This document shows, in pieces, positions 27,820 through 31,053 of a stretch of DNA of 31,124 bases. This DNA comes from a candidate division WOR-3 bacterium. GTDB lineage: Bacteria > Hydrothermota > Tepidihabitantia > B3-TA06. Positions within the stretch are counted from its first letter, which is position 1, and each line of letters starts with the position of its first letter. The stretch covers positions 1 through 31,124 of the forward strand of contig JAYELY010000358.1 in the NCBI GenBank assembly GCA_034717795.1, given 5' to 3'. The notes beneath the pieces were generated by a model. The model saw only the letters and a program-made list of their open reading frames with translations, was not told where the DNA came from and did not search any database. A program made the translations under genes and the position numbers.

Positions 27820-29366
27820 TCCTCTAAGGATGCCTCGATCCGGGGGAAGAGTGCATCACCCTTGGTAACCTTCGTACCGTCCTTCAGCCTTCCCCACTTT
27901 ACCAGCTCCTTGTAGGGGATGGTATTATCCAGAGCATCAAGCCCCAGCTTGGCTCTCAACTTCTTGCAGGTCTCGGGCATGAACGGGGTAAGGAACACCG
28001 AAAGCATCCTTAAACTCTCCAGCAAGGCGTAAAGCACCCCGGTCAGCTCCTCGGTCTTCGTCTCTTTATTGAGCGTCCACGGTGCGGACTCCTCCACGAA
28101 CGCATTTGAAGCTGTAACAAGCTCCCAGATCTTCAATATTGCCTTGCGGAACTTGAAACCCTCCATCAGCTTTGGCAGCTCCTCGGCAATCTCGGCTGCC
28201 ACATCCCGAAGCTTACCTTCATACCCTTTCACCTTCTTTACGATTCCGTCCTGATACTGTTCGGTCATACCAAGGATTCTCGACACCAGATTGCCGAAAT
28301 CGTTGGCCAGATCCGAGTTTATCCGCTCCACCAGGAGCTCCCCACTGAAAGAAGAGTCCAGCCCGAAGCTCATCTCCCTTAAAAGGAAGTAGCGGAACGC
28401 CTCGAACCCGTATTTACGCTTCATATCCAAGGGTCTCACCACGTTACCCAGCGACTTCGACATCTTCGCCTCGTCCACCTGCCAGTAGCCGTGTACCCGC
28501 AGTCCCTTGTAAGGCCCTGCGCCCATCGAGCGGAGCATGGTGGGCCAGTACACCGCGTGAGGAATCAGGATGTCCTTGGCAATCAGGTGATAGGATACCG
28601 GCCAGTAGCGCTTGAAATCCTCTCCGTCAGGATAACCGATCGCGGTAAGGTAATTGATCAATGCATCGAACCACACATAGGTCACATAGTTCTCATCGAA
28701 CGGCAGCGGGATGCCCCAGGACAGCCGTTCCTTTGGTCTTGATATGCACAGATCACCCAGCGGCTCTTGAAGAAACGAAAGAACCTTGTTGCGGTGGCGC
28801 TCCGGCTCGATGAAGGAAGGGTTCTCCTTGATGTGTTTGATAAGCCAGTCCTGATATTTACTCATCTTGAAGAAGTAATTCTTCTCCGAGCGGTACTCTA
28901 AAGGCGTCTGATGATCAGGGCAGCGGCCGTCCACCGTCTCCTTCTCCGTATAAAATCTCTCGCAGCCTACGCAGTAGTAGCCGCCGTATTCTCCGAAGTA
29001 GATGTCGCCCTTATCGTATACCTTCTGCAGGATGTCCTGCACCACCTTTACGTGATCGGCGTCAGTAGTCCGGATGAACCGGTTGTAGGTGAAGCCCAGC
29101 TCTTCAAAAGTAGAGCGGAACATCCCGGCGATGCGGTCAACGTATTCTTTTGTCTGGACGCCTTCAGCTTTGGCCGCCTGCATTATTTTGTCGCCGTGCT
29201 CGTCGGTGCCGGTCAAAAAGTAGACGTCACAGCCGTACAAACGCCAGAACCGGGCCAGGGTGTCGGCCAGAATGGTGGTATACGTATGGCCGATGTGCGG
29301 CTCGGCGTTAACGTAGTAGATAGGCGTGGTTATGTAATAAGGCTCTTTCTGCAAGGGTTTCTTCAT
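27816..29366 (-). CDS. metG: Methionine--tRNA ligase (short form, no C-terminal tRNA-binding domain)
   Basis: YITTPIYYVN..PHIGH, TGTDEHG, CVGCE...CPDH knuckle, YVWFDALINY, KMSKS. Confidence 0.97.
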   Translation of the reverse strand: MKKPLQKEPYYITTPIYYVNAEPHIGHTYTTILADTLARFWRLYGCDVYFLTGTDEHGDKIMQAAKAEGVQTKEYVDRIAGMFRSTFEELGFTYNRFIRTTDADHVKVVQDILQKVYDKGDIYFGEYGGYYCVGCERFYTEKETVDGRCPDHQTPLEYRSEKNYFFKMSKYQDWLIKHIKENPSFIEPERHRNKVLSFLQEPLGDLCISRPKERLSWGIPLPFDENYVTYVWFDALINYLTAIGYPDGEDFKRYWPVSYHLIAKDILIPHAVYWPTMLRSMGAGPYKGLRVHGYWQVDEAKMSKSLGNVVRPLDMKRKYGFEAFRYFLLREMSFGLDSSFSGELLVERINSDLANDFGNLVSRILGMTEQYQDGIVKKVKGYEGKLRDVAAEIAEELPKLMEGFKFRKAILKIWELVTASNAFVEESAPWTLNKETKTEELTGVLYALLESLRMLSVFLTPFMPETCKKLRAKLGLDALDNTIPYKELVKWGRLKDGTKVTKGDALFPRIEASLED

Positions 29367-29371
29367 CCTTA

Positions 29372-29682
29372 AGTTTACGCAGATTGGGGCTTAAGGCAAG
29401 CCTTGGGACCCATCTTTCCCTTCATATTTGAACCCAACACGTCACCAGATGCCTCCCAAAAAACTCCCCAAAAGCTGGCCAAAAATTACCCAAAAGTTGG
29501 ACAACCTTACAAAAATAAGCTGGTCGAAAGATGGACAAAAGGGGGACAAAAGCAGGACACGCCAAAGAGATTATGCTGGTCAAAAACTGGTCGGAAGTTA
29601 CCCGAAAGCTGGACACGAGGAATGTATGCCGGGTTGGACGTAAAGGTGACGGGGCAAGCACTTCTTTATTGTCATTGCGAGG
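29372..29682. repeat. 311-bp direct repeat, copy 1 (contains the metG promoter TTGCCT-16-TAAACT on the minus strand and the 11-bp array)
   Basis: Matches 30644-30954 except 5 substitutions and two 11-bp indels by manual alignment; offset 1272 bp at both ends. Confidence 0.95.
29453..29619. repeat. Hierarchical 11-bp unit array, copy 1 (13 units in blocks of 5+4+4, separated by 12-bp spacers)
   Basis: Units start at 29453, 29464, 29475, 29486, 29497 | 29520, 29531, 29542, 29553 | 29576, 29587, 29598, 29609; consensus about CTGG(A/T/C)CAAAAG. Confidence 0.85.
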
Positions 29683-29793
29683 ACGGCAGACCGATGGGAT
29701 GCAGGACGAAGCAATCTCATACCTCTGAGTGAGAGCAATGAGATCGCCACCCTTCCCCGTTTCCTTTGGAGGCGGACGGTCGGTCGCAATGAC
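29671..29793. repeat. GTCATTGCGA...TCGCAATGAC palindromic (REP/RPE-like) element
   Basis: Perfect 10-bp terminal inverted repeat (29671-29680 / 29784-29793) and an inner gcaatctcat / atgagatcgc pair (29711-29720 / 29738-29747). Confidence 0.8.
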
Positions 29794-29839
29794 GGAGTGG
29801 GAGAGGTAAACCACATTATGTTTCAGGATGGGGTTGATT

Positions 29840-29890
29840 TGGAGTGCAACAACCGTGTTGTTGCTGCAATGACGTAGTCATTGCACTCCA
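29840..29890. other. 51-nt near-perfect three-way-junction (Y-shaped) palindrome
   Basis: tggag + t + [gcaacaac-cgt-gttgttgc] + [tgcaatgac-gta-gtcattgca] + ctcca. Confidence 0.75.
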
Positions 29891-29998
29891 TAGGCAATAC
29901 ACCGCTCAAACACTACAACAATCCCAAAAGGAGTTGAATGACCAAAGTTTACAGCCATTGTGTTGGAGCAAGCCTGGATTATTCTTGGGATAGCGGTG

Positions 29999-30340
29999 TT
30001 AAATCCGTTTCAGCATCTGTGTAATCAGGGGCTTCGTTTGAGGCAAATTCCTGGTTACTATCTCCCAGATAATACTTACGTCAATTCCAAAGTATTCGTG
30101 GATTACAATATTACGTAAGCCGATCATCCTTTTCCAAGGAATGTCAGGATACCCTTCTCTCACCTCTGGTGGTATGCCCTTTGAAGCTTCGCCGATAACT
30201 TCCAGGTTTCTTAGGACTGCATCTATTGCCATGTCGTTATCCTTGAAGACCTCGAAGGTCAGACCATGGGTGTAGCGTTCAACCTTGTCGATAGCTTCGG
30301 CTATCTCCTCGACAAGGATCTTGCAAGACCTTCCTTTCAC
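29999..30340 (-). CDS. hepT: HepT-like HEPN ribonuclease toxin (DUF86)
   Basis: DAVLRNLEVIGEA, PDIPWKRMIGLRNIVIHEYFGID (RX4HXY); GTGA overlap with the antitoxin. Confidence 0.9.
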   Translation of the reverse strand: MKGRSCKILVEEIAEAIDKVERYTHGLTFEVFKDNDMAIDAVLRNLEVIGEASKGIPPEVREGYPDIPWKRMIGLRNIVIHEYFGIDVSIIWEIVTRNLPQTKPLITQMLKRI

Positions 30341-30643: not shown

Positions 30644-30954
30644 AGTTTACGCAGATTGGGGCTTAAGGCAAGCCTTGGGACGCATCTTTCCCTTCATATT
30701 TGAACCCAACACGTCACCAGATGCCTCCCCAAAAGCTGGCCAAAAATTACCCAAAAGTTGGACAACCTTACAAAAATAAGCTGGTCAGAAGCTGGTCGAA
30801 AGATGGACAAAAGGGGGACAAAAGTAGGACATGCCAAAGAAATTATGCTGGTCAAAAACTGGTCAGAAGTTACCCGAAAGCTGGACACGAGGAATGTATG
30901 CCGGGTTGGACGTAAAGGTGACGGGGCAAGCACTTCTTTATTGTCATTGCGAGG
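30644..30954. repeat. 311-bp direct repeat, copy 2 (its promoter points into mntA-hepT; array at 30725-30891 in blocks of 4+5+4)
   Basis: Near-identical to 29372-29682; units start at 30725, 30736, 30747, 30758 | 30781, 30792, 30803, 30814, 30825 | 30848, 30859, 30870, 30881. Confidence 0.95.
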
Positions 30955-31051
30955 GTGTCGGAGACACCCGAAGCTCCGGAGGACGACGCTTGCGGAGTTC
31001 CGGAGGGCGAACGAAGGGAGCAATTTCATACGCCTGAGAGAATGCGATGAC
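30943..31051. repeat. Second, divergent GTCATTGCGA-family palindromic element with internal hairpins and a degenerate right arm
   Basis: gtcattgcga start; gggtgtc-gga-gacaccc and ctccgga...tccggag hairpins; gcaatttcat; ends in aatgcgatgac. Confidence 0.6.
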
Positions 31052-31053
31052 AT

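Follow-up and report, generated by a model that had tools for sequence, protein, structure and literature searches.

Dispersed intergenic repeats of several kinds have been described in bacteria, and their functions are mostly unsettled. Cyanobacterial STRR repeats are heptamers, and the pho box unit joins a conserved 7-mer to an A/T-rich 4-mer (CTGTCAT+AAAA). PHO boxes consist of direct repeats of an 11-nt unit to which PhoP/PhoB binds (PMC2275107), and the TAACTGA repeats of Beggiatoaceae, Cyanobacteria, and Bacteroidetes are heptamers lying just upstream of start codons, for which translational control has been proposed (PMC4679880). The plasmid site parC (159 bp) is built from 11-bp iterons, is strongly curved, and takes up one ParR dimer per iteron (PMC2241845). 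Bacterial A-tract clusters of ~100 bp, phased near 11 bp, have been read as a signature of DNA that is looped or under negative supercoiling (Tolstorukov et al. 2005, cited in PMC4761138; PMC4132750). Here, we describe a family of intergenic arrays that offers unusually clean material on such dispersed repeats. Our starting point was a stretch of 31,124 nucleotides from a candidate division WOR-3 bacterium (hereafter the window; contig JAYELY010000358.1), in which two arrays lie beside metG and a toxin-antitoxin pair (mntA-hepT). The features of this locus, in window coordinates, are as follows.

29372..29682, plus strand: 311-bp direct repeat, copy 1, holding the metG promoter (on the minus strand), a degenerate box, the array, and a distal conserved block.
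29372..29399, minus strand: putative sigma70-type metG promoter, read from the sequence, with −35 TTGCCT (29399-29394), a 16-bp spacer, and −10 TAAACT (29377-29372).
About 29424..29452, plus strand: degenerate copy (atatttgaacccaacaCGTCACcagatg) of a box whose consensus elsewhere, before arrays, is CGTCAGGTTTgagtgcAACTCGTCRC.
29453..29619, plus strand: array copy 1, with block 1 at 29453-29507 (five units), block 2 at 29520-29563 (four), and block 3 at 29576-29619 (four).
29508-29519 and 29564-29575: linkers of array copy 1, 12 nt each.
29620..29682, plus strand: conserved block at the distal end of the 311-bp repeat, which runs 12 nt into GTCATTGCGAGG.
29683..29998, strand not assigned: further repeat modules in mosaic order, filling the stretch from the array block to the hepT stop, with cattgcgag/ctcgcaatg pairs and a 25-nt inverted repeat at 29840-29890.
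30644..30954, plus strand: 311-bp direct repeat, copy 2, upstream of mntA-hepT (on the minus strand).
30725..30891, plus strand: array copy 2, 13 units, with blocks at 30725-30768 (four), 30781-30835 (five), and 30848-30891 (four) and linkers between them.

Array copy 1 consists of 13 head-to-tail 11-bp units in three blocks (five, four, and four) separated by the two linkers, and copy 2 differs from it by two whole-unit indels, block 1 being one unit shorter and block 2 one unit longer. The preliminary description of this DNA had already reported two 13-unit arrays with a compensating loss and gain of a unit, which reading of the sequence confirmed in every detail, and the same two 11-nt indels were found in contigs of a cold-seep metatranscriptome (run X1) that is the probable source sample. 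It had also noted a recurrence of blocks at 56 bp and a position ~55 bp upstream of the −35, and had named an 11-bp autocorrelation peak above shuffled sequence as a check; each of these held when measured. Base-match autocorrelation at lag 11 was 0.526 in copy 1 and 0.535 in copy 2 versus 0.28 in dinucleotide shuffles (z 6.8 and 7.3; none of 1000 shuffles as high), the signal recurred at lag 22 (z ~4.8), lag 56 was the top long lag (0.595), and 54 bp separate the array start from the proposed metG −35. Tandem Repeats Finder called periods 11 and 22 at the array. The 56-bp super-period is confined to the arrays of the metG/mntA locus; arrays at other loci have 3–7 units per block and linkers of 22 or 23 nt. 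Block-final units of copy 1 take the form NNGGACA (TTGGACA, CAGGACA, and CTGGACA; NTGGACA genome-wide), and just 8 of the 13 units carry A4 or longer.

Phased A-tracts and parC-like iterons, the comparison class chosen at the outset, proved to be the right one. Like plasmid R1 parC, the array is made of head-to-tail 11-bp direct repeats in blocks of about five, ~160 bp in total, beside a promoter (PMC2241845). Unlike parC, which is one site on a plasmid, at the promoter of its own parMR operon, such arrays occur at ~40 chromosomal loci beside unrelated genes; their units are heterogeneous and carry an A-tract, and ParR/ParM were not detected (PF10784 and PF06406 unmatched in five family genomes, with control genomes equally silent). 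The PHO box offers a second likeness, an 11-nt unit of a 7-mer plus an A/T-rich 4-mer (here CTGGWCA+AAAG) repeated in phase. In contrast to PHO boxes, the arrays do not overlap a −35, and an OmpR/PhoB-type reader was rejected since Trans_reg_C (PF00486) was found in 0 of 11 family genomes against 10 of 14 controls. As with A-tract clusters and the ~11-bp periodicity of bacterial chromosomes (PMC4132750), same-strand AAA pairs of the window's own assembly (G000) are periodic near 11 bp outside the arrays as well, with peaks near 12, 22, 33, 45, and 56 and an amplitude of about ±5%. Those clusters are statistical and lack a defined unit. The arrays, by contrast, are discrete: each has its leader and terminal unit, the core outside the A-tract is conserved, and their range stops sharply at the family level.

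The metG array is one member of a dispersed, family-specific class of non-coding intergenic arrays. A DNA search of the 2.16-Mb assembly found over 20 more positions with the array part, and a phased-CAAAAG scan of the same MAG found 52 runs in 41 loci versus 2 runs in a shuffled genome. Many array loci are found no more than a few hundred bases from a contig end; the arrays therefore probably break the assembly there and account for many of the places where contigs of these MAGs stop. Among 185,579 species genomes (one genome per species), the exact three-unit pattern occurred in MAGs of Candidatus Stahlbacteria (WOR-3) only; a relaxed pattern (four CAAAAG at 11-bp spacing) was present in every genome searched of the window's family (f1; 11 of 11) and in none of the 261 other genomes of the phylum, and the reversed motif, run as a control, gave zero matches. 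Such a boundary is a ready phylogenetic profile for finding an array-reading protein, if there is one. A literature search with the unit sequence returned chance primer matches only and no description of the repeat, the Stahlbacteria papers searched do not mention repeats, and a search for a general account of phased intergenic arrays gave nothing useful. The TAACTGA and STRR repeats are likewise short head-to-tail units at many intergenic loci with a lineage-restricted range, and differ in being heptamers, where the units here match the helical turn and have no fixed position relative to genes. The arrays belong with these known kinds of dispersed intergenic repeats (REP/BIME, TAACTGA, STRR, and A-tract clusters) and are set apart by the strict one-helical-turn unit and the sharp family boundary.

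Array loci are polar, running from an A6-7G leader through [N5-CAAAAG]n to a terminal NTGGACA, sometimes with a second block after a 22- or 23-nt linker. The unit consensus is N-T-G-G-W-C-A-A-A-A-G, with CTACCC and CTCCCC as minor core types; in a logo of 231 units position 1 is free, position 5 is A or T (some C), and T2, G3, G4, C6, A7-10, and G11 are conserved. The leader adjoins either the conserved box, 12 of whose 16 genome matches lead directly into an A-rich leader and array, or a REP-like hairpin of the form GGGGTCCCC-stem-loop-stem-GGGGT. On the 3′ side, many arrays are followed by a T-tract module (GGGGCGATTTTGGGGTATTTTTGAGG) that is also phased near 11 bp, together with short tandem repeats and hairpins, and the arrays are therefore one module within mosaic intergenic repeat regions. 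Other tandem modules in the same mosaics (contigs C9, C28, C168, C254, C256, and others of G000) are (AGATTGNA)n, (TGCAAAAT/GTCAAAAT)n, and (CAGCTGACGG)n, often 3′ of a GCGACTTCGTCGC hairpin.

This setting recalls the REP/BIME mosaics of Enterobacteria and the NIMEs, which also have tens of intergenic copies, short motifs in mosaic order, and strain-variable presence; the arrays, moreover, stand beside hairpin REPs. The REP/BIME unit is an imperfect palindrome recognised by RAYT, in contrast to the array units, which are direct repeats without a hairpin and in strict one-turn phase. The main rival to the reading preferred below, possible if on balance doubtful, is that the arrays are functionless or selfish mosaic DNA, i.e., REP/BIME-like accessory modules that persist because they do no harm between genes; recombination, gene conversion, or a REP-associated enzyme would spread them and keep them homogeneous. 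Arrays that start right after REP-like hairpins whose stem variants are compensatory, the other short tandem modules around them, and the frequency of arrays at contig ends all agree with such an origin, as does the history of the box in one species. In G006 (genus g2), a species-specific box variant (CAGGTTTAACG..CGCGTCAAAAATGTGGATAACTAAG) plus three units occurs in 21 copies, 17 of them exact to an 18-nt probe, and neither the congener G009 nor genus g1 has the variant; this looks like a recent proliferation.

The pattern of change within the units speaks against functionless DNA. C-A4-G and the 11-bp phase are invariant across the four genera of the family, while the box, which drifts faster than the units, and the core have changed: the core is NTGGWC in g1 and g2, CTAGTC or TTGATC in g4, and CGGGAC, CATGAC, or CAGGAC in g3. 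Array positions are stable between species, with at least 10 loci at matching positions in G000 and its sister species G001, where the flanking genes are 82–93% identical in DNA. Among 49 aligned orthologous unit pairs, the differences at positions 1–11 number 22, 8, 7, 10, 17, 3, 0, 0, 0, 2, and 8, so that orthologues are nearly random with respect to each other at positions 1 and 5 and unchanged at A7-A9; the aligned arrays also differ by 16 whole-unit indels. Such a clean split of the unit into an invariant C-A4-G, free positions 1 and 5, and a lineage-specific core is part of what makes the family informative. An identical core is shared by 13% of neighbouring unit pairs versus 8% of random pairs (p 0.025), and because neighbours are barely more alike than random units, unit conservation is evidently not due to recent slippage. 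Family-wide gene conversion could, however, mimic purifying selection.

The DnaA box of the G006 variant bears on a further rival, in which the arrays would be replication or partition sites, either DnaA-box clusters or chromosomal centromere-like arrays. Beyond the parC-like 11-bp iteron geometry, this reading can point to the box variant itself (G006 loci L109, L113, L115, L117, and L119), which could form a hairpin and whose 21 copies contain a perfect DnaA-box 9-mer, TGTGGATAA. The number of copies bearing the 9-mer is close to the chance expectation for the whole genome, consensus TTATCCACA DnaA boxes were seen only in this variant, with none adjoining arrays in G000, G001, G002, or G009, and the variant is missing from the relatives named above. 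The units themselves are a poor match to a DnaA box, the ParR/ParM search (in which controls were silent) found neither protein, and ~40 loci per genome are far above the need of a centromere or an origin; we regard a role of this kind as highly improbable.

The history of the metG locus itself carries evidence for more than one reading. The array upstream of metG is found in six of six genomes of the genus, with differing unit counts. In genus g1 the metG −10 is kept in six of six genomes and the −35 in five, the exception being G003, where the hexamer is GTTGCC, or TTGCCT with a 15-bp spacer; a consensus promoter scan gave no call for this putative promoter. The metG ATG stands 5 nt past the putative −10, and the TAAACT-taagg-ATG spacing (window 29364-29377, minus strand) recurs in five genus-g1 genomes, G002 having a GGAGG leader instead. 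The short distance from −10 to start codon suggests a leaderless or near-leaderless metG mRNA in these five genomes.

Between G000 and G001, identity is 98% over the promoter and box, 96% over the array, 100% over the distal block (also 100% in G005), and 100% over hepT, so that copy 1 of the 311-bp repeat is 96–100% identical, while the metG coding sequence is only 78% identical (58% at third codon positions). This break falls sharply at the metG start (window 29367-30340 against L068 of G001), which suggests that the MntA/HepT toxin-antitoxin module and its flanking repeats were recently exchanged horizontally, rather than that selection alone preserved them. A 150-nt contig of run X1 joins window 29354 to 29967, that is, the first bases of metG to the hepT 3′ end, via 41 other letters; because of this junction, one co-occurring strain evidently lacks the whole 612-bp promoter/array/mosaic block between hepT and metG (29355-29966 replaced by 41 nt). 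Both the exchange and the presence or absence of the block between strains again agree with functionless accessory modules.

The same strain counts against a promoter-linked element, in which the arrays, as UP-like phased A-tracts or as an activator array, would boost the adjacent promoter, here that of metG and of mntA. Some observations agree with it: in ~60% of loci a divergent gene starts on the side of the array's 5′ end and box, good promoters of TTGACA-16-TAGAAT type lie 5–35 bp past the box where a divergent gene follows at several loci, including those of a tRNA and two ECF sigma genes, and whole-unit indels preserve helical phase. The placement of arrays counts against it. The 45 array-bearing gaps of G000 and G001 comprise 29 tandem, 10 convergent, and 6 divergent cases, which is near random, as also expected of functionless DNA. 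The gene at the array 5′ end runs in the opposite direction in 36 cases and in the same direction in 25, with no departure from chance, and array orientation showed no bias with respect to GC skew or to gene majority and direction. Some arrays sit after stop codons, at L072 the promoter adjoins the opposite array end, and the distance from box to promoter is variable. At metG, moreover, the array covers about −80 to −250, past the known reach of the alpha-CTD. We accordingly consider a promoter-linked function quite unlikely, and the claim in the preliminary description that the element serves the metG promoter is not supported, given the ~41 loci, including convergent gaps that need no promoter, the occurrence of both orientations to the nearest promoter, and the strain that does without the block.

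Nor do the neighbouring genes point to a common function. By a simple codon-usage gene caller the arrays are intergenic, two weak in-ORF matches being one false positive and one doubtful ORF, and the flanking genes (flavodoxin, ECF sigmas, a ClpB/ClpC-type Clp ATPase, OmpA, aldehyde dehydrogenase, tRNA, HU, and others) share no function. An OmpA-like protein is the one gene family flanking arrays in at least three genera, with too few loci from g3 and g4 for this comparison.

Turning to the level at which the arrays might act, a coding role is excluded, as 11-bp indels between copies and species break any frame; the argument that the constraint lies at the DNA level and not in a protein is sound in this respect. 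Structured RNA was also excluded: for either strand, nearly every shuffle folds better (z +2.4 and +1.7), and Rfam 15 had no match in the window at gathering score, a relaxed E-value search yielding only chance-level miRNA matches (E ~0.5). The weaker alternative put forward with the array, a GGA-motif RNA sponge for CsrA, was dropped, since sister-genus units (CTAGTC, TTGATC, and CATGAC) are without GGA, the array is poor in structure, and CsrA (PF02599; positive controls detected) and Hfq (PF17209) were each found in 0 of 5 family genomes. A broader form of the idea, in which transcription of the array would give an A-rich, unstructured landing site (a sponge or a UTR module) for an RNA-binding protein, fits the unusual lack of predicted structure on both strands and the presence of arrays in contigs of the X1 metatranscriptome, at word depth 10–15 versus 4–9 for metG, a comparison that DNA carry-over may affect and that multi-copy repeats inflate. 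One X1 contig also crosses the metG promoter, as DNA carry-over would allow, the arrays follow no orientation rule relative to transcription, and the box shows no convincing −35/−10 on either strand by eye and was not called by a consensus promoter scan. With GGA not conserved, CsrA and Hfq not found, and no Rfam match, action as RNA seems very unlikely. Because the arrays are independent of orientation, the data favour an effect exerted on double-stranded DNA, or no effect.

The preliminary description had anticipated a curved or protein-wrapped element. The A-tracts are indeed phased, with coherence peaking at 11.0–11.2 bp/turn and reaching 0.83 at 11.2 bp/turn, but simple planar curvature is not predicted because coherence is just 0.35 at 10.5 bp/turn. 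The phasing instead predicts a superhelical, not planar, path for relaxed array DNA, and underwound or protein-wrapped DNA would hold all units on one face. These considerations shape the reading that we tentatively prefer, with slightly less than an even chance of being right, namely that the arrays serve an architectural protein, either as docking sites lined up on one face or as superhelically curved DNA. In such a mechanism, the polar organisation and the exact 11-bp spacing would put the short A-tract and conserved core of each unit on nearly the same helical face, and the array would be an architectural element acting on double-stranded DNA, its superhelically curved stretch offering successive docking sites to a DNA-binding protein that would be abundant in the cell. 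About one protomer or dimer might bind per turn, as ParR coats parC, with protein binding, wrapping, and a nucleoid role all following from this analogy. The array would then be no dedicated metG activator; its upstream position at this locus would be incidental, and any effect on the promoter secondary.

Several observations weigh against an architectural role. The search for a reader protein has so far been negative, the near-random intergenic placement is as with functionless DNA, the arrays lie inside REP-like mosaics, one strain lives without the block, and the G006 copies look like proliferation. A histone-fold reader was rejected, as PF00808 was found in 0 of 41 relatives with archaeal controls positive, and so was HU/IHF as a family-specific reader, since these proteins are present but their paralogues are not restricted to the family. 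Likenesses of the unit to consensus sites of sigma-54, IHF, Fis, gyrase, and DnaA are all partial, and none holds in sister genera. A bolder extension of the architectural reading, which we think unlikely, is a sequence-directed chromatin-like system in this one Stahlbacteria family: a family-specific protein would polymerise with one subunit per helical turn on ~40 or more arrays, read C-A4-G via the minor groove together with a co-evolving genus-specific 5-nt core, and set nucleoid loops or domain boundaries.

For annotation, the arrays call for a warning against spurious ORFs. Open frames of 109–130 codons cross them in the window at 29403-29732 (plus strand), 29422-29814 (minus), and 30694-31053 (minus), and because 11-bp indels between copies and species break them, these frames are repeat artefacts and not genes to annotate. 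Outside the family, many viral and metagenomic contigs (L186, L187, L196, L209, L211, L218, and others) carry homogeneous 11-bp tandem repeats ending in CAAAAG, e.g., GGCGGTCAAAAG in eight or more copies; their units are near-identical within an array, unlike those of Stahlbacteria arrays, and they may be phage or plasmid iterons; in core sequence they are unrelated to the Stahlbacteria arrays. Lastly, an array lies upstream of a second HU gene in five of six genus-g1 genomes and in no other genus. This second HU/IHF-like gene (G000 contig C138:560-841; orthologues L084 and L168-L176) has, in all four family genera, a strongly conserved promoter (TTGACA-17-TATAAT) and a conserved ~150-nt 5′ leader (gtggtgatagataagtttcgc...), which may be a cis-regulatory leader RNA.
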